DNA from: a phage
Reading direction: 5' to 3' (one strand)
Length of the DNA stretch: 64,000 bases
Sequence record: PX418922.1
The position numbers and the translations under genes are program-made. Below, in pieces: positions 13,441 to 26,802 of the stretch. Position 1 is the stretch's first letter; every line of letters starts with the position of its first letter. The notes under the pieces are model-generated. The model had not been told where the DNA came from. It searched no databases and worked only from the letters and a program-made list of their open reading frames with translations.

Positions 13441-15465
13441 ATGAATTTAACAAGACCTAATAGTGCGATAGCCGATCTGGTAGAAGCTACTTATCGAAAA
13501 CGTCGCAGCTTTGAGGCAGGTTTTACATTACGTAATTCCCGTGAAGTTTTGCTGTTAGCAGCAGAAGGGAATTATTACCAATGGAAAGGAACTTTTCCTA
13601 AAGTAGTTCCAGCAAACTCTACGCCAGCCACCACAGGTGGTATTTCTTCCCTTGCATGGCAAAGTGTTGGGACCGCTGATGATATAGCAATTATCAATGC
13701 CAAGTTTACGGCAATGCAGCAACAGATTGATGATCTGTCGGAAACAATACCTGAAGCTGGTAAATCGGCTTATCAGATCGCACTTGATAATGGTTTTGTT
13801 GGAACAGAAGCACAATGGCTTGCTTCTTTGAAAGGGGATACTGGTGCTCAACTTAATATTAAAGGATCATTAGCAAGCACTAGTGAACTACCATCCACAG
13901 GTAACGTTGCAGGGGATGGTTATATCGTAGGTGATGTAATCTACGCTTGGGATGGTTCTGTTTGGAAACTTATTTCTTCTCTTGGACCAGAAGGTAAATC
14001 AGCTTACGAGATATGGTTGGCAGATGGTAATACAGGATCTGTTTATGATTTTCTTACCTCTATAAAAGGTGATAAAGGCGATGTTGGTCCTACAGGGCCA
14101 CAGGGAGCACCTGGTGTTAACGCCAACGGTTTTGATTATCGTGGGGATTTGCCTTCTACAAGTAACTTACCACAACCTAACTCTGAAAACGTAAGCCAAG
14201 CTTATTCTATCAATGGTAATCTTTATGTCTCTAATGGGACAGCTTGGGTCAACATGGGTAATATTGTTGGTCCTCAAGGTCCACAAGGTGAGGCAGGTAA
14301 AGACGGTCTAGATGGAACAGATGGAGATGAAGGGAAATCTGCATATCAAAGTTGGCTGGATGCTGGTAACGAAGGGACAGAAGTAGATTTTATTGCCTCA
14401 CTTAAAGGTCCAAAAGGAGACAAGGGTGATCAAGGAGAGCGAGGTCCACAAGGTGAACTAGGTCCGCAAGGACCAGTGGGTGCAACAGGATCAGGTTTAG
14501 AGATTATCGGGGTTCTGAACAGCGAAGCTGAACTTCCTCCTACTGGAGAAGTAGGTGATGCATATAAAATTAATAATGATTTGTATGTTTGGGTTCAAGA
14601 TGCTACGGAATGGATGAATGTTGGCAGTCTTGGAGGAACATCAATTACAGCTAAAGGGCATGTTCCGAACAGTGAAGCTCTCCCTGTTTACAATAACTAT
14701 GGCGATGCCTACTTAACTGAAGACACCAGTAATCTTTACATCTATACCTACGATCAAGACACCAATTCCGCATCTTTTGTTGACATGGGAAGTATTAAAG
14801 GCGACAAAGGTGAAAAAGGGGATAAAGGAGATAAGGGTGATCCTGGAACAAACGGAACCAACGGTACTAATGGGACCAACGGTAAGGACGGCGCACAGTG
14901 GTTTGTAGCAACAACTAATCCAGTCGCAGGTGATGGTGTTATCAATGATTACGCTTTCAATACTACCACTGGAGCAGTGTTTAAGAAAACAGATTCTTCT
15001 ACATGGACACTTATAGGAACTCTTCCTAGTATACCAGAAGCACCTCAAGACGGCTTGACGTATGGTCGTTCTGATGGGAACTGGATCGAAATATCAGGAT
15101 CAGATCCTACAGAAGCTATAACACCAACTAAAGTTACAGCAGGTTTCATGGAACTTGAAACAACTACTGCCAACTCTGGAGCATCTTGGACTCCTTCTGG
15201 AACTTCCAATATGTATGTTGTTACAGTAACTGACGCTCTGACAGTTGGAGCATGGCCTGGTGTCACTGGCTCTACAAAACCTAAAGCGTTTTCAGCAATG
15301 ATTTATTTGATTCAAGATACAACGGGACACACGGTTACACTAGATGCGTCTTATGGAGCACTAAATGATACAGAAATAGCAACTACTGCTAACGCAGTAA
15401 CAATTTTGCAATTAACGTATCCTGGTGTGGGTAATATCGTGGACATGGTTGTTGTAACACGATAA
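13441..15465 (+). CDS. collagen-like tail fibre protein
   Basis: 674-aa ORF with multiple Gly-X-Y tracts (e.g. 'GPQGPQGEAGKDGLDGTDG', 'GDKGEKGDKGDKGDPGTNGTNGTNGTNGKDG') and shared fibre N-terminal motif 'WKGTFPKVVPANSTPATTGG'. Confidence 0.65.
   Translation: MNLTRPNSAIADLVEATYRKRRSFEAGFTLRNSREVLLLAAEGNYYQWKGTFPKVVPANSTPATTGGISSLAWQSVGTADDIAIINAKFTAMQQQIDDLSETIPEAGKSAYQIALDNGFVGTEAQWLASLKGDTGAQLNIKGSLASTSELPSTGNVAGDGYIVGDVIYAWDGSVWKLISSLGPEGKSAYEIWLADGNTGSVYDFLTSIKGDKGDVGPTGPQGAPGVNANGFDYRGDLPSTSNLPQPNSENVSQAYSINGNLYVSNGTAWVNMGNIVGPQGPQGEAGKDGLDGTDGDEGKSAYQSWLDAGNEGTEVDFIASLKGPKGDKGDQGERGPQGELGPQGPVGATGSGLEIIGVLNSEAELPPTGEVGDAYKINNDLYVWVQDATEWMNVGSLGGTSITAKGHVPNSEALPVYNNYGDAYLTEDTSNLYIYTYDQDTNSASFVDMGSIKGDKGEKGDKGDKGDPGTNGTNGTNGTNGKDGAQWFVATTNPVAGDGVINDYAFNTTTGAVFKKTDSSTWTLIGTLPSIPEAPQDGLTYGRSDGNWIEISGSDPTEAITPTKVTAGFMELETTTANSGASWTPSGTSNMYVVTVTDALTVGAWPGVTGSTKPKAFSAMIYLIQDTTGHTVTLDASYGALNDTEIATTANAVTILQLTYPGVGNIVDMVVVTR
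14845..14880 (+). repeat. in-frame 9-bp (Gly-Thr-Asn)x4 tandem repeat inside collagen-like fibre gene
   Basis: 'ggaacaaac ggaaccaac ggtactaat gggaccaac' read directly. Confidence 0.6.
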
Positions 15466-15506: not shown

Positions 15507-18182
15507 ATGTTTCCAATTCCAATATTTACTATTATGACCAGCACTGGTGTCGTTCCTCTGCCAGCAGGTATTGTTAAAAAAGTAATCACTTTAGATTACC
15601 CAGATAATGCTGGGAATTCTAATAGCAGTTTAGCAATTTTGCTTAATGATGGTAGATTGTTTACTCAAGGCGCAAACCTTTTTGGTGAGATTGCAGATGG
15701 AACTCGTAGTGCACGATTCAATAATTTCCACTTGGCTTCTACTGTAGTAGCGGATGTGTTTACCGCAGATCGTTGTTTTGTTATTAAAACTAACAGTGGA
15801 GGATGGCAATATTCAGGATTGACAGCAGGATTGGTAGGATCTATAGCAGCAGGTGGTACGGACGCATGTGTAACTACTTGGACCAGCTTTCCATCTGTAA
15901 TAACAGGGACTATCTCTTTAGCTAATCTTAAAGAGGTTAAGGGAGGATATAACAACACTCTCTGGTTAATGAATAGTGGTGTTCTTTATGGATCAGGTCA
16001 AAACACAGTAGGCAGTTTAGGTGCAAGTACTACTAACGAAGTTTCTACTCCTCGTCAGATAACAAGTGCAGCAGTTGCTTTTGATGCAGGTTACAACCAA
16101 TGCTCTTATGTCAACAATGTGGGAACCTTGCGTGTTTGTGGAGCTAGTAAAGGTTTAGCAGGTAATAATAACACAACAACAGCTTTTGTCAATGCTAAGA
16201 TATCCGCTACTGAAACAGTGTATGTCAAAGATTACATCAATACAGTTTCCCAGACAATAGTTGTAGGAGATACCTCCGGTGGCACGGGTACAGTAAACTA
16301 CTTATATGTTAGGTCTAATACAGAAACAACCTACACTAAACTGGATACCTTTGCAGCAGGTTTCTCAACATGGAAGTTTCCACCAAGCCGCCACTCTTTT
16401 TTCGTTGGGATCAATAATTCCTTGTGGGCTATTGGTAAGAACTACACTGCAAACTTAGGTTTGGGGTATGATTCTGCGAGCGGAGATCCACTCCAAGTGG
16501 GAAAACCAGTTAAACCTGAAGGAGTGGGTTCTTGGGATATAAACAAGCTCACAAGCGTTCATACGCTGAATATGGATGTTACTAACCAATTAGGTTATCA
16601 AGGAACCTTTTTCGTTTATAATGGAGATATGTATTATTCCGGTATTTGGAAAGATGGGAAAGCCTCGTATCTGTTCAATAGCGGTCTAAACTATAATAAA
16701 TTCACACCAATAGCAAGCTCCGTGATTACGGGTGATATTCTGGCAACTGGCTTAACTACAGATTCTTTAGGAATTTGTATTGTAGGTGGAACTAAACAGT
16801 TGACACATTCTGTTAGCCCAGAAGGAGGTAAACTTTTCAATATTAAATACACTTCTTCTGCCCCTGCAAACATGACAATATCATCTACTGGTTTAATGAC
16901 TTTCCATGCAGAAGGTGGTTTTGATGCAGGTATGACAGCCTTAAACGCTGAAGGAACAACTTTATCAGATACCTCTGGAGGATATGCTTCAACATTGAGT
17001 GTTTACACCCCTAGCTTATCTGCGATGGATGTAGGAACAACACAAACAATGGTAGCAGAAATAACGCCAACAGGAGCAGCAAGCTTACCTGGCATGGTTG
17101 TTGAGTATTTCTCTAATGACCCTACGGTAGCAACAGTTGACCCCGTTACAGGCGTTATTACAGCGGTTGCTGATGGAGGTTGTCGTATCGGTTGTAGAGC
17201 AACTTATCAAGGTGTGGTAACTGCCGAAGATAGTTCTTATCTCACAGTGAATGCTGTGGTGATTGTGATGGATTATGATTTGACGCAAGAAACTATTCCG
17301 GCGGATGTAAAGGTCAACAGGAGTAACCGTTATGCCAGGGCTTCTGGAGATATCCTTGTACCTACAGAGAGTTCTGCTCCCGTAGCACCTTTAGAATATG
17401 TTGGTACAACTCCACAAGGTAGACGTGTTGTAGCAGCCAACCGTACACATATCTTTATCAACAATAACTTGACAACAGCTTCCCCGTGGTTGAAGACGAA
17501 CTTGACAGTCACAGCATCAACAATCAACTCTCCGGTTGGAACTACGGCTAACACTTACAAGTTAACACCTTCTACAACTTCAGGACAACATATTTTATCA
17601 GCAGTGAATACAGCTTCTGATATTACAGCAGGTAAGCACTGGGCGGCATCCGTATTCTTGAAGCCAGATGGGATCACTAAAGTGAAACTCAAATTGACTT
17701 CAGGAGATGAGATTAACGAAGGGACTTATGATCTTGTAGCTGGAACATTTACAGGTGCAGATGCAAACATAATCGATATGGGGAATGGTTGGTATCGTGT
17801 AATTCTACACAAAGTGACAGTTGCCAAACAAGCATCTATAACCTATGAGATTATAGCTTTGAATGCAAGTGGATCAGACACTTTCGCAGGAGATGGTACG
17901 GCAGGTCTTATTGCTTGGGTTCCACAGCTTGAGATGGGGGATATGACAAATCCAGTTTGGGCGGGGACACCATTTGTTTGTTCTTATGCACGAGACACTA
18001 CCAGTGCTGTTACCTTCACTATTCCTAAGAATGGACATACTGGCGTGGACATTTACCACACTGATGGTACTGTGCAACGAGAGGTCTTCACTGGTACAGC
18101 TACAACTTGGATGTTGACGTTCACCGCCGCAAGTGCGGATTGGGGATCGAAGTTCATTACAGGTTTGAAATATTACGACTAA
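15507..18182 (+). CDS. tail fibre protein with Ig-like (Big_2-like) region
   Basis: 891-aa Thr/Ser/Gly-rich ORF; segment '..ATYQGVVTAEDSSYLTVNAVV' resembles bacterial Ig-like domains. Confidence 0.5.
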   Translation: MFPIPIFTIMTSTGVVPLPAGIVKKVITLDYPDNAGNSNSSLAILLNDGRLFTQGANLFGEIADGTRSARFNNFHLASTVVADVFTADRCFVIKTNSGGWQYSGLTAGLVGSIAAGGTDACVTTWTSFPSVITGTISLANLKEVKGGYNNTLWLMNSGVLYGSGQNTVGSLGASTTNEVSTPRQITSAAVAFDAGYNQCSYVNNVGTLRVCGASKGLAGNNNTTTAFVNAKISATETVYVKDYINTVSQTIVVGDTSGGTGTVNYLYVRSNTETTYTKLDTFAAGFSTWKFPPSRHSFFVGINNSLWAIGKNYTANLGLGYDSASGDPLQVGKPVKPEGVGSWDINKLTSVHTLNMDVTNQLGYQGTFFVYNGDMYYSGIWKDGKASYLFNSGLNYNKFTPIASSVITGDILATGLTTDSLGICIVGGTKQLTHSVSPEGGKLFNIKYTSSAPANMTISSTGLMTFHAEGGFDAGMTALNAEGTTLSDTSGGYASTLSVYTPSLSAMDVGTTQTMVAEITPTGAASLPGMVVEYFSNDPTVATVDPVTGVITAVADGGCRIGCRATYQGVVTAEDSSYLTVNAVVIVMDYDLTQETIPADVKVNRSNRYARASGDILVPTESSAPVAPLEYVGTTPQGRRVVAANRTHIFINNNLTTASPWLKTNLTVTASTINSPVGTTANTYKLTPSTTSGQHILSAVNTASDITAGKHWAASVFLKPDGITKVKLKLTSGDEINEGTYDLVAGTFTGADANIIDMGNGWYRVILHKVTVAKQASITYEIIALNASGSDTFAGDGTAGLIAWVPQLEMGDMTNPVWAGTPFVCSYARDTTSAVTFTIPKNGHTGVDIYHTDGTVQREVFTGTATTWMLTFTAASADWGSKFITGLKYYD

Positions 18183-18189
18183 TAAAAAA

Positions 18190-18218
18190 GGGAACCTTTG
18201 CGGGTTCCCTTTTCTTTT
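18190..18218. terminator. bidirectional rho-independent terminator between convergent gene blocks
   Basis: 'gggaacctttgcgggttccc' hairpin flanked by A-run upstream and T-run downstream. Confidence 0.65.
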
Positions 18219-18245
18219 ATAAAAACTCTTTATAAATCAATAAGA

Positions 18246-19133
18246 TCAGAATGGAATATCATCGTCGAAGTCCATTGGAGGTTCTTCTTGATTACTTGGA
18301 GTTGGTTCTGGTTGTGGTTCAGGTTTCTTAACTTCTTTCTTCTCTTCTTTCTTAGGCTGTTCTGCGGAACCACGAATGGCAGCAGCAACTTTATCAGACA
18401 GAGCCAGAACTTTACGAGCAGAATCAATCAGATCTTCTACAGATACAGTCTTAATAGTATGGTCTTTACAAGCATTGAGGATAGCGTGACCAACAGATGC
18501 CCCAAGATCATAATCATTAATATCAACGCCACGAGATTCAGCAATTTCCGATTTCAGCGTGACAGTTGCAGATTGAACAACCCCAGCGATATCGAAAGCA
18601 TCGCCTTTAACACCATTACGAATCAGTTCCAGTGCACCATTTACTGCGTGACCAGTTTCCAGACCTACAGTATCACGTTTTTTATAGGATTGCTTAGGAG
18701 CAGCATCGTTGGAACCTTTATTGCCAGAAGATTTGTTAGACTTCTGAACACCATCGGTAGACAATACTGTAATACGAGATTTTTTAGTATTGTAGTAAGT
18801 TTTACCGCCTTTATTATCAACGCGATCAATATCAATACTTACTTCTACACCTTTTTCAATAGTGATCCAATTATCGCCTTCTTTGACTTGCAGGTTTTCA
18901 TAACCTTCTTTCAGTTCAATGTCACCAAGAGAAATCCAAACACCTTTCTCATCTGGTTTAGCACCTTTCTCTTTCAGAACAAGAGAAGCTCGGTGAGTTG
19001 AAACAATCGTTTTTCCTTCCCAATGGAAGGTTTTAGGTTCAGCGAATTTATCCAGTTTAACGTAGTCTACGATACCAGTTGCATAAGTTACGGTTTTGCC
19101 TTTACGATCAGTTTCAGTATTAATTACGGACAT
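18246..19133 (-). CDS. ssb: single-stranded DNA-binding protein-like
   Basis: 295-aa ORF ending in 'MDFDDDIPF', the canonical acidic SSB C-terminal tip; adjacent to replication genes. Confidence 0.6.
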   Translation of the reverse strand: MSVINTETDRKGKTVTYATGIVDYVKLDKFAEPKTFHWEGKTIVSTHRASLVLKEKGAKPDEKGVWISLGDIELKEGYENLQVKEGDNWITIEKGVEVSIDIDRVDNKGGKTYYNTKKSRITVLSTDGVQKSNKSSGNKGSNDAAPKQSYKKRDTVGLETGHAVNGALELIRNGVKGDAFDIAGVVQSATVTLKSEIAESRGVDINDYDLGASVGHAILNACKDHTIKTVSVEDLIDSARKVLALSDKVAAAIRGSAEQPKKEEKKEVKKPEPQPEPTPSNQEEPPMDFDDDIPF

Positions 19134-19149
19134 TATTATCTCCTCTACA

Positions 19150-19542
19150 TTACATTAATTTTGCACAGAAAGAGCGGAGTCTTTCCATATCATCTTGCTC
19201 TAACAGGTATTTACCTTTACCTATTCCAACTCCAATTTCACCATTAGGAAAATGAACTATTTGCACTGGGAAACCTCCGAGTTTAATTGTGGCAGCTTTG
19301 CCTTCTTCGTCTATAACGTTTCGGATTGTATCTTGCAGTGAAATGAATTCTTTGTTTGTAACAGTGGTTTCAATTATTTCAGATGTTTCGACACGAGCAG
19401 TTAGCTTCTTGTTTCCACCTTGAATAACCAAAATTTGAAAATAAAAAGAGTTGTCAAGACCTACAACATTTTTCTCAACTAGTGTCAAACTGGTATAGTT
19501 TCCATAAACAGTTTCAACAGCTATCTTAGAACGTTCAGTCAT
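19150..19542 (-). CDS. hypothetical protein
   Basis: 130-aa ORF, no recognisable motif. Confidence 0.45.
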   Translation of the reverse strand: MTERSKIAVETVYGNYTSLTLVEKNVVGLDNSFYFQILVIQGGNKKLTARVETSEIIETTVTNKEFISLQDTIRNVIDEEGKAATIKLGGFPVQIVHFPNGEIGVGIGKGKYLLEQDDMERLRSFCAKLM

Positions 19543-19587
19543 TGAATGCTATCCTATCATAAAATGTTTAATATTGTCAAGCTTTAA

Positions 19588-20181
19588 TTACCAAGGAATA
19601 TCATCTTCTTCCAATCTGGTATCTACTTGAGGTGGACGTGGAACCTTAACCTCTTTCACAAAACGAAGATATGGGAAACGTGTAGCAATTTTAATAACAT
19701 GTTTGGCATCTTCTCTAACATCTTTGTGCAAGAAGCAGATCCCTGTTTCCAAGGTTGTTTCAAAATCTTTAGAATAATAACAGTCCTTCCCATCAAATGC
19801 AGCCTGGCAGATGGACAGATCGAACTCATTTAGAAAGGTTGTCATTACGCTTGGTTCCATAATCATAAGGTTGCAAAGCTGACCATCACGTTCAAACTCA
19901 AAAACGTGTTTAAGACCAGTAACACCTTCATAATTGTCAGAAGCCTCTTTGTTCCCTAGTTTACGAATATTGGTTCCCATTAAAGCAGATGCAATTAATC
20001 CTTGTATTTGTTCTTCAGTCCGATGTGCAGGAAGGGATGTATAGAAATCCAGATCACGTCCAGCAATATCAAGAATACGCCAATCACGAACAGCACCGCC
20101 AGCCAAGACAGAATTAGGATCAGCGATCTTTAATATGGTAAGAATTTCTTTGGCAATATTGATTTGTTTTGATTTAGTCAT
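19588..20181 (-). CDS. Pol-beta superfamily nucleotidyltransferase (CCA/poly(A) polymerase head-domain-like)
   Basis: 'GGAVRDWRILDIAGRDLD' matches GGAVRD..DxD motif of class II tRNA nucleotidyltransferase head domain; C-terminus 'EEDDIPW' resembles SSB tail. Confidence 0.5.
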   Translation of the reverse strand: MTKSKQINIAKEILTILKIADPNSVLAGGAVRDWRILDIAGRDLDFYTSLPAHRTEEQIQGLIASALMGTNIRKLGNKEASDNYEGVTGLKHVFEFERDGQLCNLMIMEPSVMTTFLNEFDLSICQAAFDGKDCYYSKDFETTLETGICFLHKDVREDAKHVIKIATRFPYLRFVKEVKVPRPPQVDTRLEEDDIPW

Positions 20182-20392
20182 TGATACGCTCCACAGTTAC
20201 TTTTACAACATCGTCCATATTAATCTCATCCCCTAAGACCTCAATAACACCTTCCTCATAAAGTCGAGCACATTCTTCCCACACTTCAGCTTCCGTCATT
20301 CCACCTGCAATCTTATTTGCAAGACCTTTAATAACATCTTCATTTTGTTCATCAACAAGAATTGAAACATTAAAGCTCACTAATTTACGCAT
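20174..20392 (-). CDS. hypothetical small acidic protein
   Basis: 72-aa ORF overlapping neighbour start by 8 nt. Confidence 0.4.
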   Translation of the reverse strand: MRKLVSFNVSILVDEQNEDVIKGLANKIAGGMTEAEVWEECARLYEEGVIEVLGDEINMDDVVKVTVERIND

Positions 20393-20569
20393 TGTTTTCT
20401 CCTTATACTTCTAAACGGAAAGTTTCTTTAGATACAAAATCGTATCCACCTTTTTCAAGCCAGTCATTGTAAACCTCATCGGCTTGAGACTCTATCATAA
20501 AATACCGAGTGGTAACTTCGTCTCCGACAATACGCACAATTTTATAGCAAATCATGATACCATTTCCCA

Positions 20570-20761
20570 TTAATCTTCCTCCAGATCAATTTCATTATAA
20601 CAATGTATGCAGAAACCATCATTGTGCATATGTTGTTCATAAGACATATCTTTACCACAAGACCAACAACGGATATCCCCATCGTCCCATTCACGTTCTT
20701 CTTCACCTTCGAATTCATCTGGTAGGTAAGGCATACCAAGACAATCTAAATCGTAATGCAT
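20570..20761 (-). CDS. small Cys-rich (zinc-ribbon-like) protein
   Basis: ORF track gives 20570-20866, but the upstream part lies inside the polymerase gene; internal ATG at 20759-20761 has strong RBS 'ggaggag'; CxxC..CxxC pairs. Confidence 0.45.
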   Translation of the reverse strand: MHYDLDCLGMPYLPDEFEGEEEREWDDGDIRCWSCGKDMSYEQHMHNDGFCIHCYNEIDLEED

Positions 20762-20810
20762 ATCTCCTCCTATAAAGGGGCAGAAGCCCCTTATAAAACA
20801 ATATGTTAGA

Positions 20811-23408
20811 TCAGTGACAGGACGCCCAAGAATTACCCACATCATATCCGGCAGTAAGCTGAACATTAAGATTGTAAAATTCTCCAGCCTTAGTAACAGC
20901 TAAGGCAGCAAGTTCACCTGCCCGACTATAGGCTGTAAACCATCCACCTTTAGGAGATTCATGAATGTTAGCCCAAATTTGCCCTGTCTCTTTTTCCTTA
21001 TTATGCTTCCATTCTTCGACTTTAGCAAGGCATTCTTTATCAATTTTCTTTTGTTCTTCAGGATCGTCTACTTTCTTCCAACCTAATGATTCAGGTGAAA
21101 ACCATTTAAATTCTACAAGGTTACGAGAAACTTCAAGCTGGGCTTCATCGTGATATGCAATCATTTGTTGCACGAAGTCTTTATTCTTCCAGTCATCTTT
21201 AAAGAAGTCAACACTTAGCCCTTCTTCTTCGATCATGTCGTCATAAATAACCATTGCACGTTTAGCACAGATAACCCCGCCGCTTTGGAATAGAGAGTTA
21301 AGAATCGCGTGAGCAGAACGAGTAGGAACCTTACGACCGTCAATACCCAAAACATATTGTTTACCAGTCTTAACCCAGAAATCGTTTAAACGTTCTTTAA
21401 GACGCGCCAATGGGAATGCAGCTTCCCAGAAAGCATCAAACACCAATTGACCTGTAAACTTATCGCTACCAATTGTTTTAGCAACCTTGTCGGCTTGTGC
21501 ACCATAGGTAATACCATACTTAACAGATTTAGCAGGACTACGTTCAAATTTACGTCCAATAGTTTCAGTGATACGTTTTGCCATCATTGTGTGAACATCG
21601 TTAGGTTTTTCTAACAACAGAGCGTTACAATATTCGTGTGGCTCCGGCTCGTACCGCCAACAGTAGTGTGATTCAATTTTTGCTTCCAAAGAGTCGAAGT
21701 CGTAGCCGATCTGGAAGTATTTAGGAACCTCTACACCAAACAAGTTACGCATCTCCCATCCAAACAAAGATGTGACACGAGGAATGTTAGCTACAGACCT
21801 ATGCTTCATACGAGAGGTTGCAGCATCACATGTAGCTGCTGGGGTAGGAATACGACCATCCGCCCTTACTGCGGCTAAGAAACCTTTATCGTATTCTTGA
21901 TCTTCTTCATCTTCTTCCCAATCAGCACCGCCACCTAAAATAGAGTTCCTACGATGCTTATACGTTAAGTATTCTACAATCTGTGTAGCATAAGGAAACT
22001 TCTCACCCAAAGCTTGCAGGTTAGGACAAATTTCTTTTTCCTGACCTTTGGTAAAACATGGGTTAGTCAATACTTTAAGACCGCGACCTTTACCTTTTGC
22101 TATACGCTCTTGAATCTTCCTTTCCAAGGTTTCCGGTGTGCACTCCAGATGATCACAACGATCCTGACAAAAATTAGAAGATAGAGTTTGCTCAACGTAA
22201 GCTCGAATGCCTTTCTGAAGTTCTTCCTCGCTCTTTTTAATCTTGGTGCCAGATTTAAGAGTCAAGTCTTTATCTTTATATTCAGACGGTACCCAACCTA
22301 ATCCTACAAGCCAGTTTTTAATATGGGTTGTATCGTTCAATGTTGCAGGAATGTTAGGATCACATAGAGGCTCATCTGCTGCAACTGGCAGTTTCCACTC
22401 TTTCCCCAACATAACTAACCACCAATCGCCATCCCTCTCTTCCAAATGACCATCATGTTTCTTAGCAAAATTGATCATATGGTTAGTTGGCTCTAAGTTC
22501 TTTTTAATTTGCAACTTAGGTGGAATAAAAGCTTTAAGATAACCTTTTGTTGCTGGTTTAGGTGGCAAAATAGGCTCAACGAGTAAACGAAGACGCTCCA
22601 TTTCTGCATCCAAAAAAGCAAGGTTCTCTTCTGCTTGTTTCATGTTAAAAGCAAACCCACGGTGTTCCTGGCGTGTAATAATGTCTGCTACACGTTGTTC
22701 AAGTTCAAATGGACCTTCCCATTTATCATAATCACCCCATTCTTCCATAAGGTAATTATATACGCTCGTATTGGCTTTGTTGTCATAGATACAGTAATAA
22801 AGCATATCCGCAGCAAAAGTCTTAAATCGATCTTCTTCTGGAATCTCTTTACGGAAATCTATTTTTACATCACCACCTGCTTTTCGAGAAAGTGCTGCCA
22901 AGCTATGTCCTGATTTGCCCTCAATCTTTCGATCTGGGTTTAACACTTTACTCAAAATCAAGGAGTCAATAAGTTTTACCTTATTTTTGCCCCACGTATT
23001 ATATTTAACACTGTAATCTAATCCATAAAACAGTTTTGTAGCCAACCAGTCGTAGTTGATACCGTTGTGAGCCACAGCCATTTCAACCAGATATTCAGGC
23101 TTGTCTTTAAAATAACCTTCATGATTAATAAAATCTGGGAAATCTTTTAGTTGAAAATGTGTGTAATCTTGCGCCACATACTCTTTAAGAACATATGTGT
23201 ATTTACCATCTGACTCTTCATAAGGACGCCCATCAAAGATGTATTTAGGGCCATCGTGGAAAGCTACTATTTCTCCTGTTTCATGGTTCTCTAAGACAAT
23301 ACAGTGCATTTGAAATGTGTCTTTGAGACGATAAGGACTAGCTAAATAATCAATAGTGTCATTATTCAACAATCCGTTTGCTTCAATATCCCATGTAAAC
23401 TTACTCAC
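20811..23408 (-). CDS. DNA polymerase, family A (T7 gp5-like) with 3'-5' exonuclease domain
   Basis: 865-aa ORF; N-terminal 'DIEANGL' exo motif, C-terminal '...GNSWASCH' closely resembling T7 polymerase C-terminus. Confidence 0.85.
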   Translation of the reverse strand: MSKFTWDIEANGLLNNDTIDYLASPYRLKDTFQMHCIVLENHETGEIVAFHDGPKYIFDGRPYEESDGKYTYVLKEYVAQDYTHFQLKDFPDFINHEGYFKDKPEYLVEMAVAHNGINYDWLATKLFYGLDYSVKYNTWGKNKVKLIDSLILSKVLNPDRKIEGKSGHSLAALSRKAGGDVKIDFRKEIPEEDRFKTFAADMLYYCIYDNKANTSVYNYLMEEWGDYDKWEGPFELEQRVADIITRQEHRGFAFNMKQAEENLAFLDAEMERLRLLVEPILPPKPATKGYLKAFIPPKLQIKKNLEPTNHMINFAKKHDGHLEERDGDWWLVMLGKEWKLPVAADEPLCDPNIPATLNDTTHIKNWLVGLGWVPSEYKDKDLTLKSGTKIKKSEEELQKGIRAYVEQTLSSNFCQDRCDHLECTPETLERKIQERIAKGKGRGLKVLTNPCFTKGQEKEICPNLQALGEKFPYATQIVEYLTYKHRRNSILGGGADWEEDEEDQEYDKGFLAAVRADGRIPTPAATCDAATSRMKHRSVANIPRVTSLFGWEMRNLFGVEVPKYFQIGYDFDSLEAKIESHYCWRYEPEPHEYCNALLLEKPNDVHTMMAKRITETIGRKFERSPAKSVKYGITYGAQADKVAKTIGSDKFTGQLVFDAFWEAAFPLARLKERLNDFWVKTGKQYVLGIDGRKVPTRSAHAILNSLFQSGGVICAKRAMVIYDDMIEEEGLSVDFFKDDWKNKDFVQQMIAYHDEAQLEVSRNLVEFKWFSPESLGWKKVDDPEEQKKIDKECLAKVEEWKHNKEKETGQIWANIHESPKGGWFTAYSRAGELAALAVTKAGEFYNLNVQLTAGYDVGNSWASCH

Positions 23409-24202
23409 TATTCCTCCTTTCTAATGTTCTCCAGAACCCACTGAAGTTCTTTTAAACTTAAACTTCTTACTCCCGCAGTTTTACTAGCTTCAGCTTTAAG
23501 TAACGGGTAAGCCTCAATGATACGCGTTTTAAGATCAGAAGTCAAGGCTTTTAAAAAGTAGGTAGATGCTTCAGATAAAGAATCTTCTTCTGATAACACT
23601 TTACCTGCACTTGCTCCCGCTCTCCTAACGGCTATATCGTAGTCTTTACTGTTACCTAATACGAATAGTCGATTCTCTCCTAAAACAACGGGAGAACGCT
23701 TCTCGTTGCGTTTAATCCATATCTGGAATACACAAGGAACATCCCAAGGTTCTCCATGAAGAATAAAAGATCCTTTTGGACATTCTTCTTCGTAAAGAAG
23801 ATGCATGTGGGGATTTAGTTTGTGTGCAAAAAAGATTTTTTGAAATGTGCGAGGCAAGATAAAACAAATACCACCTTCGTTATCCAACATTTCAGCACAA
23901 TGGTTAAAGAACTTAATGGCAAGACTAGCATTTTTTCCAAACGGAGGATTACCGACAAAAGCAGTTACACTACCAACAGACTCAACAGATTGAGCTAAAA
24001 AATCTGCCTCAATACAATCTTCAAACTTAGGGTCAATATCAAAAGAAGTTATGTTTTTAAAACAAGAAGAGAAAGCCCCTTCTCCCGCAGATGGTTCTAC
24101 GTAGTTAGCTTCCTCTCCAAAAATTTCTTTGATCTTATCACATAAGAACCCCGCATAAGCGGGGTTAGTGTAATATTGATCAAGTGTGTTCAACTTGCTC
24201 AA
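23408..24202 (-). CDS. DNA N6-adenine methyltransferase
   Basis: 'EPSAGEGAF' (SAM-binding motif I-like) and 'GNPPFG' (motif IV NPPF). Confidence 0.65.
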   Translation of the reverse strand: MSKLNTLDQYYTNPAYAGFLCDKIKEIFGEEANYVEPSAGEGAFSSCFKNITSFDIDPKFEDCIEADFLAQSVESVGSVTAFVGNPPFGKNASLAIKFFNHCAEMLDNEGGICFILPRTFQKIFFAHKLNPHMHLLYEEECPKGSFILHGEPWDVPCVFQIWIKRNEKRSPVVLGENRLFVLGNSKDYDIAVRRAGASAGKVLSEEDSLSEASTYFLKALTSDLKTRIIEAYPLLKAEASKTAGVRSLSLKELQWVLENIRKEE

Positions 24203-24211
24203 TAGTCCTCC

Positions 24212-24643
24212 TTAGTTGTTAGCGAACTCAATAGTGAGGTCAACTTTACCATCGTCAGAAATAACCATGTTTTTGGTATTTTTAAAGATGATATCTACTT
24301 TACCTTCACTTACACGACAGAATGCAACACCATCTGCAACTTTATCGATATAATATTTGTAAGAAAGAATACCCACTTTACTACGACCAGCACCTTTTGT
24401 GAAAGAAGGGCTTACATCGAAACGGAAACCTTTAGAAGAAACAACACGGTAAGAACGTCCAGTTGGAAGATGTTCAATAACAGAGACATTATTCTCAACA
24501 ACTTTTACAGCAAACTCTTCAGGATGATCCTCAACAATCATATGTGGGATGGCAAATGCCAACGCTTGTTTGTGTTTAATAACACCAGCACCCAGAGCAC
24601 CAGCAGCTTTAACTTTTGCATTCAGATCGATTGTCATACGCAT
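24212..24643 (-). CDS. hypothetical protein
   Basis: 143-aa ORF, no recognisable motif. Confidence 0.45.
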   Translation of the reverse strand: MRMTIDLNAKVKAAGALGAGVIKHKQALAFAIPHMIVEDHPEEFAVKVVENNVSVIEHLPTGRSYRVVSSKGFRFDVSPSFTKGAGRSKVGILSYKYYIDKVADGVAFCRVSEGKVDIIFKNTKNMVISDDGKVDLTIEFANN

Positions 24644-24735: not shown

Positions 24736-26511
24736 TTAATAATTGCTATCCGTAGGCAAATTAGCAGGATTGTTGAAATACTGCTCTTTGTCATGCAGGG
24801 TTGCAGTTCTAATGTCATAGTAAAACTGCCCTGCCGGACCAGTTTCTGAGAACTCACGGTTTTTTAGGATAAAGCAATGAGTCGTATTGCGTTCTACAGG
24901 GTCTTCAGCGGCTTTATCTCGTTCCAAAGCCAAGGTAATACCAGCACCTTTAGCCAAGAAACTACTACCCATTGCATCGTCCTCTGTTAAGTGTTCATTG
25001 CCACCATTGGCCGATTTCTTAACGTGTGAGATGACAATAATAGTTATAGCATACTCTTTCATGATGCGCTTCAACCATGTTGCTAACTCTTCCTGGGCTT
25101 GAACATCCATACCAGAAAGCAAATCAGAATAAGGGTCGATAACAAGAATTGTTACTCCAAAATAGATGATCATCTCCAAAACTTTTTCTTTGATAGACTC
25201 CACATCTGCTCCACGATCATCACACACATAAAAACGTGGTGATCCATCTTCTCTTTCGTAAAAATCTAGGATTTTTTCTTTATTCTCTTCCAAGATTTGA
25301 AATTTCTCTTCCGGTGTTTTCCTGTGTAGAGGAATATGCAGGAACGAGGACAACAGGTTACGAGAATATTTCTTATAAGTTGCTTCCAAGGACAGAATAC
25401 CTAGGGTATGTTCTGGGTGCGCAACAATAATATGTTTGGTGATCTCGTTCACCATCAAAGTTTTACCGATACTGGTCTTTGCCAGGATAACTGTAATCTC
25501 TTCCTCTACTAAACCACCACCCAGCATATTTGCAGCAACACGCATAAAAGGAGGCAAGGTAATCATCTTGGATTCCAAGCATTCTAATGCGGCTTCATAC
25601 AAGACATTAGAAGCATAAACACCTGCTGGGGTGTATAGACGAGCACTCCAAAAAGCTTTTACGAAATCTTTTGCACGACCTTCTTCCAGATACTGATTGG
25701 CATCCTTAAGATCCATCTGCATACGATAGACTTTGTTACGAGGCAGCACCTTAACAATATTTTCAAATGCCTCATTACCTGCTTTGTCATTATCCATGCA
25801 AACAATAATCTTCTTAAATTTTTCAAAGAAAGGATATTGTGCCTGAACTTGTTTATACATACTGGTTTCACCAGTTGTGCCACTAACTACTGCTGGAAGT
25901 TCATACTTGTTGTCCAAGTTTTCAGATAGCATTTGATAAGCTGCCAGAGCATCGTGTTCACCACCTGTAATTACCACAGTATGAGAACGGTCTGCAAAAC
26001 GAATTTGTCCAAAAAGATCTACATCTTTACCTACTTGACCAATAGGTTTACTGAAATCTTTAGGATGAATACGACGCTTAAAACCAACCAATTCTTTACC
26101 GATAGTAGTTGGATATAAACAACTTTCTACTACCATCTGATCCCCTTCCTGACGGTATTCATAACGAACACCATAGAAAGATGAAACTTTTTCTTTAATG
26201 CCTCGATAACCACGTGGGTTGGTTGATGTTTCTTGAACAATTTTACGATGAATCTGTTTATTAAATTCCGAACCCACAATCTCCTCCTCTTCTAAAACTT
26301 CACCATTTTCTCGTAACCATTCTACGCTAGGAATAGTGTATTCACACGCAAAGCACTTAGCACCTTTATGCTCTCCATTAGAATCTAATCCATAAACCAT
26401 CAGGTTATTACGAGAGCGATCCTTGCCATTTTTCATGCAGCGCGGACAACCTGTATGCCCTTCCTTGCTAAGATCAACATCAAATCCATATTTAGTTATA
26501 ATGTGCGACAC
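24736..26511 (-). CDS. bifunctional DNA primase-helicase (T7 gp4-like)
   Basis: N-terminal Cys4 zinc finger 'CPRCM..CFACEY', central TOPRIM-like region, C-terminal Walker A 'TSIGKT'. Confidence 0.8.
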   Translation of the reverse strand: MSHIITKYGFDVDLSKEGHTGCPRCMKNGKDRSRNNLMVYGLDSNGEHKGAKCFACEYTIPSVEWLRENGEVLEEEEIVGSEFNKQIHRKIVQETSTNPRGYRGIKEKVSSFYGVRYEYRQEGDQMVVESCLYPTTIGKELVGFKRRIHPKDFSKPIGQVGKDVDLFGQIRFADRSHTVVITGGEHDALAAYQMLSENLDNKYELPAVVSGTTGETSMYKQVQAQYPFFEKFKKIIVCMDNDKAGNEAFENIVKVLPRNKVYRMQMDLKDANQYLEEGRAKDFVKAFWSARLYTPAGVYASNVLYEAALECLESKMITLPPFMRVAANMLGGGLVEEEITVILAKTSIGKTLMVNEITKHIIVAHPEHTLGILSLEATYKKYSRNLLSSFLHIPLHRKTPEEKFQILEENKEKILDFYEREDGSPRFYVCDDRGADVESIKEKVLEMIIYFGVTILVIDPYSDLLSGMDVQAQEELATWLKRIMKEYAITIIVISHVKKSANGGNEHLTEDDAMGSSFLAKGAGITLALERDKAAEDPVERNTTHCFILKNREFSETGPAGQFYYDIRTATLHDKEQYFNNPANLPTDSNY

Positions 26512-26523
26512 TTTGTTCTCCTG

Positions 26524-26802
26524 TTAAAATGGTTCGTTAGTCTCCATCATATATTCTGCTTCTAGTTCTTCCATGTGCTTTCTAAATTGGAAAGCAATTT
26601 CTGCTACAGTTACATTTAAATCTTTTTCAAAAACTTCTGTAGAGCCTTCATAAAAACGAATACCGTCAATTAAAAGCCCTCCGTGGTAATCCCAATCACT
26701 TTCACGAGAAAGCGGGTTAGGCTCTTCATAATAGTAATCCACCTCCACGACTAAAGCTTTCCCGTTACGAGTGGTGTATTCAAAATCAAAAGTGTTAATC
26801 AT
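26524..26802 (-). CDS. hypothetical protein
   Basis: 92-aa ORF. Confidence 0.4.
   Translation of the reverse strand: MINTFDFEYTTRNGKALVVEVDYYYEEPNPLSRESDWDYHGGLLIDGIRFYEGSTEVFEKDLNVTVAEIAFQFRKHMEELEAEYMMETNEPF

Follow-up and report, generated by a model that had tools for sequence, protein, structure and literature searches.

A minimal nucleotidyltransferase with an SSB-type C-terminal tip in the replication module of a Phapecoctavirus phage

Two neighbouring genes with SSB-type C-termini

This work deals with two neighbouring genes in a stretch of phage DNA of 64,000 nucleotides (sequence record PX418922.1), which is referred to as the window throughout. One of the genes encodes a protein of 295 amino acids that resembles a binding protein for single-stranded DNA (SSB), the other a minimal nucleotidyltransferase (NTase) of 197 amino acids, and both products end in a short acidic peptide of the type found at the C-terminus of bacterial SSB. 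The window belongs to Phapecoctavirus, which comprises myoviruses of E. coli with genomes of about 150 kb within the subfamily Stephanstirmvirinae. It is 99% identical to phage phAPEC8, and positions 18000-24300 share 98.7-99.0% identity with phAPEC8 and many Phapecoctavirus genomes. The two open reading frames (ORFs) and their parts are located as follows; for the structural models, confidence is given as predicted local distance difference test (pLDDT) values.

18246-19133, minus strand: gene for the SSB-like protein, an ORF of 295 amino acids, homologue of phAPEC8 gp085; 98.8-99% DNA identity to phAPEC8-type phages and a match to PHROG 4477 (2.7e-97)
18249-18275, minus strand: SSB-type tip MDFDDDIPF, followed by the stop codon TGA at 18246-18248; matches the SSB tails of E. 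coli and related bacteria (PDB 1eqq/7f2n)
18276-18374, minus strand: disordered linker of the SSB-like protein, rich in K, E and P, residues 254-286; pLDDT 46-70, without secondary structure, variable in length and sequence among homologues
18375-18677, minus strand: predicted four-helix domain of the SSB-like protein, residues about 153-253, with conserved GHAxNG and GASVGHA motifs
18753-19133, minus strand: predicted N-terminal beta-rich domain of the SSB-like protein, residues 1-127, resembling an oligonucleotide/oligosaccharide-binding (OB) fold
19588-20181, minus strand: gene for the minimal NTase, 197 amino acids, homologue of phAPEC8 gp083
19591-19611, minus strand: SSB-type tip EEDDIPW of the NTase, followed by the stop codon TAA at 19588-19590
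19612-19650, minus strand: disordered linker of the NTase, residues 178-190, VKVPRPPQVDTRL; pLDDT drops from 87 to 67, without secondary structure past residue 176, variable among homologues
20047-20100, minus strand: catalytic motif A of the NTase, from GGAVRD (residues 28-33) to DLD (43-45); conserved in 84 sequences

The initial annotation had described an SSB-like ORF with the tail MDFDDDIPF and, close to it, a 197-residue NTase with the motif GGAVRD..DLD and the end LEEDDIPW. Both descriptions were correct. In the SSB-like ORF the stop codon follows directly upon F295 and in the NTase ORF directly upon W197, and both tips therefore lie at the extreme C-terminus, where the terminal aromatic residue bears a free carboxylate. 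The SSB-like protein terminates in ...PSNQEEPPMDFDDDIPF (in longer print ...TPSNQEEPPMDFDDDIPF) and its last 12 residues (EPPMDFDDDIPF) are those of the E. coli SSB tail as present in PDB 1eqq. The NTase reads LAGGAVRDWRILDIAGRDLDF from residue 26 to residue 46 and has the C-terminus ...VDTRLEEDDIPW. Measured against the consensus D-D-D-[IL]-P-F of the SSB C-terminal tail (SSB-Ct), the SSB-like protein is an exact match (DFDDDIPF), and in the NTase (EEDDIPW) W replaces F.

Such ends are rare in this phage. When ORFs of at least 50 amino acids were read from stop to stop in all six frames of the window, 2 out of 401 ended in an acidic run followed by [ILVM]P[FWY], and these were the SSB-like protein and the NTase. 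No further example was found in the remaining 83 kb of phAPEC8, which leaves two such ends in the whole phage of about 148 kb. The only other acidic-aromatic tail in the phAPEC8 scan is that of the small subunit (R2) of ribonucleotide reductase, ...DDEELDF. From residue frequencies we estimate the chance of [DE][DE]IP[FW] at a protein end at about two in a million. The two tip-bearing genes are 455 bp apart on the same strand and belong to one replication gene string. An origin of the NTase tip as a copy of the 3' end of the SSB gene was considered and rejected, the common stretch being only 11 nucleotides that are dictated by D-D-I-P.

The nucleotidyltransferase resembles a stand-alone class II head domain

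Confirmation of the NTase by hidden Markov models, which the initial annotation had called for, was divided. With the Pfam profile PolyA_pol (PF01743) the protein scored 13.9 bits, below the gathering cut-off of 23 bits, and the best family member reached E = 0.0011. On the other hand, the assignment was supported by matches to PHROG 10174 (8e-63) and PHROG 1614 (2e-11), both annotated as "nucleotidyltransferase", and by matches at the level of the fold. When 1.84 billion representative proteins were searched with a profile, 1031 relatives were retrieved, mostly of 175-220 amino acids. In the present data set this family (1031 cluster representatives of about 190 amino acids) stems mainly from phages and viral contigs; it is almost wholly uncharacterised, and a search of the literature yielded no characterised member. 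In an alignment of 84 family sequences, residues G28, G29, W34, D43 and D45 are invariant, R32 and D33 are nearly so and E95 is the majority residue of its column. The pattern of motif A, GGxVRD followed after about 10 residues by DxD, is present as GGAVRD at positions 28-33 and DLD at positions 43-45.

The AlphaFold2 (AF2) model of the NTase (pLDDT 90.7, predicted template modelling score 0.83) is confident up to residue 177 or so and unstructured thereafter, with pLDDT values of 57-67 for residues 178-197. Its fold agrees with the head domains of CCA-adding enzymes and poly(A) polymerases, and 140-160 residues align to enzymes of 370-420 amino acids. When PDB sequences were searched with an NTase profile, CCA-adding enzymes came out on top, across motif A only, and no other stretch of the sequence than motif A can be aligned with those of CCA-adding enzymes and of E. 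coli poly(A) polymerase I (PAP I). The neck, body and tail domains, which hold the tRNA, and the templating motif D (EDxxR) were not found in the protein, which stops at residue 197. As the chain ends at this point and the sequence likeness is confined to motif A, the NTase is not a complete CCA-adding enzyme. The designation "tRNA nucleotidyltransferase" in some GenBank records is not justified for a protein that lacks the tRNA-binding neck, body and tail. We conclude from the model that the NTase is a predicted stand-alone head domain of class II (CCA-adding/poly(A) polymerase type) with its catalytic motif intact. From the established class II NTases, i.e. CCA-adding and A-adding enzymes, PAP I and the stand-alone head in PDB 2la3, it is set apart by its length of only 197 amino acids and by its score below the Pfam threshold.

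SPbeta-like phages encode an anti-Gabija protein, Gad2, that is comparable as a phage protein for which an NTase domain is predicted; it differs by its size of 400 amino acids. A direct link was tried and discarded. Faint or weak precomputed PF26128 flags on proteins P0009, P0136, P0238 and P0279 were not reproduced, with no match at E values up to 10 in a local Pfam search. In addition, the family member P0201, which has 400 amino acids, was rejected as a Gad2 protein; its phage matches are found in Vibrio, Escherichia and others, with no Bacillus phage among those listed.

The SSB-like protein

The 295-residue protein has no Pfam SSB match. Its matches to SSB-annotated PHROG and PDB entries span the tail only (residues about 250-295), and PHROG 4477 carries no function label; in some GenBank records the gp085 homologue is labelled "single-stranded DNA-binding protein". 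A Pfam Ribosomal_60s match on the linker (16.7 bits) was judged to be compositional. In the AF2 model, built with 33 homologues (pLDDT 80), a beta-rich part formed by residues 1-127 is followed by a disordered basic segment, a four-helix domain, a disordered linker rich in K, E and P and finally the tip; the stretch from residue 254 to 295 has pLDDT values of 46-70. All 120 homologues, the most distant of which are about 30% identical, have the tip conserved as ...[DE]x[ILVC]PF, and it forms the true C-terminus in 103 of these.

The other 17 homologues run on past the tip by a conserved extension of 15-17 amino acids (APIGLQYGRNFLHCF and variants), by which the free carboxylate of the tip would be lost. 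The extension-bearing relatives diverge from the window exactly past the Phe codon. The loci concerned are L002 (3877-3933 and 3905-4399), Citrobacter phage Tr1 (L330, 3564-5001) and phage phi92 (L331, 3526-4473), at the place equivalent to window position 18246. A gene for a 164-residue HNH endonuclease begins within the extension in L002 and Tr1, and phi92 has the identical extension without an HNH gene.

According to the model, the SSB-like protein probably represents a non-canonical family that combines an OB-like domain with a helical domain. No second SSB is annotated in phAPEC8. On the basis of the predicted fold, the tail, the replication context and the lack of any other annotated SSB in phAPEC8, we conclude that the protein is probably the SSB of this phage, a non-canonical one with a host-matched tail and predicted binding of single-stranded DNA. 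It most likely coats phage single-stranded DNA, and its tip would engage the proteins that read the tail of E. coli SSB. Host-type tails on phage SSBs are ordinary.

Conservation of the nucleotidyltransferase tip

Ten NTase homologues with 58-97% identity end in DDIPW, save one that has DSFPW, and the preceding 10-20 linker residues differ among them in length and sequence. The end is also found at greater distance. In the syntenic locus L087 the NTase (P0136) is about 35% identical to that of the window and ends in ...NFPDDIPW; the fragment of the SSB-like gene at this locus is 81% identical over the first 122 residues. The NTase of the likewise syntenic Citrobacter phage Tr1 is 36% identical and ends in ...SKPKDIPW past a much longer linker, and an unrelated member of the NTase family with 305 amino acids and another gene context ends in ...SSNDIPW. 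Phage phiWec188 shows a synonymous change from GAT to GAC in the tip. The retention of DDIPW next to a varying linker, the retention of DIPW at 35-36% identity of the protein body and the synonymous change in phiWec188 together indicate that the NTase tip is under selection.

IPW ends on SSBs and on unrelated enzymes

The IMG/VR database was scanned for DNA encoding [DE]DDIPW followed by a stop codon, and bacterial genomes, one per species, were scanned with the same motif. At least 119 matches were obtained from IMG/VR (loci L090-L209); all of the 119 listed are in-frame ORF ends and make up at least 21 clusters of proteins. Among the IMG/VR matches listed are canonical SSB (PHROG 44), SSBs of PHROG 9002 and of PHROGs 7364/18154, an Enc34-type SSB and NTases of the type present in the window. 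Among the bacterial matches listed, SSBs of Orbaceae, Methylibium, Novosphingobium and others end in DDIPW. Because IPW ends thus sit on bona fide SSBs of several families, from phages as well as from bacteria, F at the SSB tip is naturally replaced by W in some cases and ...DDIPW is a common variant. The proposal of the initial annotation that the NTase end is an SSB-type tip can be upheld in this form, that is, as a variant of the SSB tip.

The same scans returned proteins other than SSBs. The IMG/VR matches listed include several families without assigned function, the largest with 25 sequences of about 197 amino acids, and a superfamily 2 (SF2) helicase of about 600 amino acids (601 amino acids; L114, L105, L102). 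Proteins of about 355 amino acids ending in ...DDDIPW occur in Stenotrophomonas, Luteimonas and relatives, with about seven Xanthomonadales among the bacterial matches listed (L217, L233, L264, L297, L315, L317, L318). The L217 protein matches Shedu SduA_C with 58 bits at a cut-off of 27, and a protein of this type would be an anti-phage nuclease bearing an SSB-type tip. XPB-like SF2 helicases of 511-538 amino acids from about 20 Oscillatoriales (Microcoleus, Tychonema and others) among the matches listed end in ...AKWG(x)DDDIPW (L216, L220-L222, L232, L236, L238, L251, L261, L266, L280, L285, L309, L319, L321, L322, L328); the helicase in L232 matches XPB_DRD, ResIII, Helicase_C and ERCC3_RAD25_C. 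In Chromatium okenii (L214), a T5orf172 protein likewise ends in ...DDDIPW. This phage is thus not alone in having an SSB-type tip on an enzyme other than an SSB, the same end being present on SF2 helicases, Shedu nucleases, XPB-like helicases and also a T5orf172 protein.

Gene order and neighbouring features

The surroundings of the two genes contain the following features.

18186-18213: GC-rich hairpin with T runs, terminator-like, separating the convergent genes for the SSB-like protein and a tail protein; a terminator in the phAPEC8 annotation
19150-19542, minus strand: conserved gene for 130 amino acids between the two tailed genes, homologue of gp084; PHROG 16560 (function not assigned), same position in syntenic relatives
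19551-19580, minus strand: sigma-70-like promoter, TTGACA, 18 nucleotides, TG-n-TAGGAT, just past the NTase stop codon
20811-23408, minus strand: family A DNA polymerase, encoded upstream within the same string of genes; Pfam DNA_pol_A (1.4e-13), PHROG 17 and synteny
24736-26514, minus strand: primase-helicase ending in ...NLPTDSNY, by the phAPEC8 gp076 annotation at 98.8% identity; Toprim_2/DnaB_C in the homologue of L006

The sign of the GC skew switches near 18 kb, where the plus-strand block of tail genes meets the minus-strand block of replication genes. In the latter, the order is primase-helicase, family A DNA polymerase, three small genes, NTase, 130-residue protein and SSB-like protein, and this order is kept across rV5-like phages. 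No Pfam, PDB or informative PHROG relative was found for the 130-residue protein. A promoter-like element (TTGACA, 17-18 nucleotides, TATG-TAnnAT) could be aligned between the NTase gene and the gene for the 130-residue protein in six out of six syntenic loci (window, L008, L087, L330, L331 and L009), and the genes for the 130-residue and SSB-like proteins may therefore have a promoter of their own.

The family A polymerase has 865 amino acids in the window and 1099-1189 amino acids in some close relatives (L002 1-740, L011 2027-5341, L087 4285-7584); the greater length suggests an insertion, either an intein or a mobile element, in the genes of the relatives. Just upstream of the primase-helicase gene, a protein of 92 amino acids (26524-26802, minus strand) ends in ...EAEYMMETNEPF and its relatives end in ...METNESF or ...MESNEYF, and the replication module may thus contain a further conserved tail with an aromatic end. 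Outside of this module, a tail-fibre protein of 674 amino acids (13441-15465, plus strand) contains collagen-like G-x-y runs (GPTGPQGAPG; GDKGEKGDKGDKGDPGTNGTNGTNGTNGKDG).

Proposed role of the tip and comparison with known systems

We propose that a portable docking peptide of the SSB type tethers the NTase to proteins that read SSB tails, and we hold the chances of this proposal to be about even. The disordered linker of about 13 residues and the terminal EEDDIPW would stand in place of the body and tail domains of the cellular enzymes. With its terminal aromatic residue, its free carboxylate and the acidic residues before them, the tip would fit a pocket of the kind by which SSB tails are read, and this pocket would be offered by a phage replisome protein and/or by a host SSB-interacting protein. 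In this way the catalytic domain would be held at intermediates of single-stranded DNA coated with SSB, where it may add nucleotides to the 3' end of a nucleic acid. The architecture of the SSB tail supports the proposal, since the tip lies behind a structure-free linker of low model confidence in the NTase just as it does in the SSB-like protein. That the tail targets an activity and is not a pure decoy is suggested by the invariance of D43 and D45, by E95 as majority residue and by the confident model of the catalytic domain. Two remoter NTase homologues (31-34% identity) are tailless; one of them, P0011, is located outside of any replication module and counts in favour of the proposal as the sole untailed distant homologue whose neighbourhood was looked up.

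With the bacterial SSB-Ct (...DFDDDIPF) the NTase shares an acidic peptide at the extreme C-terminus, with D-D-I-P-aromatic in register and behind a disordered linker. It differs in that it is not an OB protein binding single-stranded DNA, presumably does not form tetramers and has W in place of the terminal F; moreover, the carrier of the exact tail in this phage is a non-canonical SSB without a Pfam SSB match. The replisome of phage T7 offers a parallel, since the SSB gp2.5 and the unrelated helicase-primase gp4 both have acidic tails ending in Phe and both are read by the polymerase. According to the Richardson laboratory, the tails of gp2.5 and gp4 are reportedly interchangeable. In T7, however, the second carrier is a helicase-primase and not an NTase, the tails are ...DTDF and ...DGDF and not of the DDDIPF type, and the primase-helicase of phAPEC8-type phages ends in ...PTDSNY. 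In modelling work on T7, the gp2.5 tail was placed where the polymerase binds a peptide of the gp4 tail in PDB 6P7E (PMC12339929). A phage protein that reads the tail of the host SSB is exemplified by lambda Red-beta (PMC6393309).

Weighing of the explanations

Several observations weigh against a docking function of the tip. Syntenic relatives end otherwise, namely in ...NEEFKI (phi92-like), ...FMDEI (L009), ...WTDEI (L010) and ...ESPDVFNF (L013-L017), and its absence from several syntenic orthologues implies that the tip is dispensable for the core role of the enzyme in the replication module. The NTase family as a whole is not enriched for acidic-aromatic ends, which were counted in 6 of 145 family members and 36 of 854 neighbouring phage proteins (Fisher p = 1); with the strict motif the numbers were 5 of 145 NTase representatives and 13 of 854 neighbouring proteins (p = 0.16). 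Furthermore, the NTase tip always carries W whereas the SSB tips of phage and host always carry F. A different partner or affinity is possible on these grounds, and with W on the NTase tip and F on the neighbouring SSB-like tip an identical partner specificity is not guaranteed. Finally, the extension of 15 residues on the SSB-like tip in the close relatives L002, Tr1 and phi92 indicates that the rules of the hub are not the textbook ones there. The two counts led us to reject the tip as a trait of the entire NTase family. With different ends in syntenic clades and no enrichment in the wider family, the tip has rather been added in particular lineages, to an enzyme that has had its place in the replication module for longer.

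Instead of targeting an activity, the tail could mainly serve as a decoy that occupies the pockets for SSB tails on host proteins and displaces host SSB from repair, restart or defence factors, catalysis being secondary or separate. The tip of the NTase closely copies the host motif, a second tip-bearer, next to the phage SSB that already displays the exact host tail, could titrate partners, and several defence systems are reported in a table of PMC12904381 to sense phage SSBs or DNA ends. We nevertheless consider a decoy unlikely: a catalytic centre would be superfluous in it, but the family shows no variation at D43 and D45; a monomer with a single tail would, by our own reasoning, compete poorly with the tetrameric and abundant host SSB; and the tip is missing in phi92, a close syntenic relative on the same host species. 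The likeness to the SSB tip could also be only chemical and convergent, with the DIPW end binding something other than a reader of SSB tails, e.g. the 130-residue neighbour or another phage protein. This would agree with the strictness of W on the NTase and of F on the SSB-like protein and with the frequency of acidic ends with a terminal aromatic residue among proteins of phage replication regions (the 36 out of 854 given above), and R2 of this phage, the C-terminal tail of which serves an unrelated interaction, has an end of this kind. However, the match extends beyond composition, as D-D-I-P-aromatic-stop is in register with the SSB tip, and IPW ends are present on real SSBs. The 130-residue protein is encoded with or without a tip on the NTase and thus does not co-vary with it; having no informative relative either, it was rejected as a candidate partner. 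A mere look-alike is therefore improbable in our view.

There is a slim chance that the tail is an intramolecular regulator, the acidic peptide folding as a substrate mimic onto the nucleic-acid groove of the NTase itself until it is freed by substrate or partner. The tail of T7 gp2.5 likewise binds its own OB fold, and the tails of the untipped NTase orthologues are still acidic and hydrophobic (FMDEI, WTDEI, PDVFNF). PMC3936761 is devoted to the intramolecular binding of the OB domain by the C-terminus of E. coli SSB. The net acidic character of the catalytic domain (charge -4, pI 5.6) and the AF2 model, which leaves the tail unplaced with pLDDT 57-67, argue weakly against such a regulator, and plain charge mimicry would not demand the exact order D-I-P-W. 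A tip without any function, arising by chance or as a by-product of a constraint on the DNA beside the downstream promoter, was already disfavoured and is very improbable. It could be advanced that the NTase stop codon is only 8 nucleotides away from the conserved -35 box and that the tip codons GAT ATT CCT TGG (19591-19602) are identical in NTase lineages whose gene bodies are very different, with only about 35% identity, in contrast to the synonymous variation in the tip codons of the SSB-like gene (CCA/CCG/CCC, ATT/ATC). But the distance between tip and promoter varies by up to about 45 nucleotides among lineages, the promoter is present in phi92 and L009, which lack the tip, the phage prefers just these shared codons (0.78, 0.66 and 0.55) and phiWec188 carries its synonymous change. 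For these reasons an artefact at the level of the DNA, be it a by-product of the promoter or a shared recombination block, was rejected as the main cause, and the identity of the codons remains a mild oddity. In addition, a motif expected at the above rate of about two in a million is kept among close homologues.

A wider and rather doubtful variant of the tethering proposal is that the NTase is one of an unrecognised class of enzymes tagged with the SSB tip, together with the SF2 helicases, Shedu nucleases and XPB-like helicases, that enter the SSB hub. Here, the tag would deliver nucleotide addition to a host reader of SSB tails or to its DNA or RNA 3' end and thereby disable or mislead a repair or defence factor, a counter-defence of the sort suspected for Gad2.

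Implications

In a narrow literature search restricted to open-access text, we found no SSB-tip mimic on a non-SSB enzyme, be it a minimal NTase or a tip-bearing helicase or nuclease. Bacterial genome maintenance relies on the SSB tail as its central docking peptide, which is usually treated as belonging to SSB alone. Should enzymes unrelated to SSB bear this peptide, the hub has clients that enter from the SSB side and not from the reader side. If true, this would change models of the competition between SSB partners, of the takeover of host repair by phages and of defences that watch SSBs or DNA ends, and the interest would be higher still if the tag were a general route for enzymes into the SSB hub. 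The case is cleanly testable, with a small enzyme, a short linker and a tip of five residues, and natural relatives that share a host species differ in having or lacking the tip. The tip would also give a first functional handle on the very large and uncharacterised family of minimal NTases.

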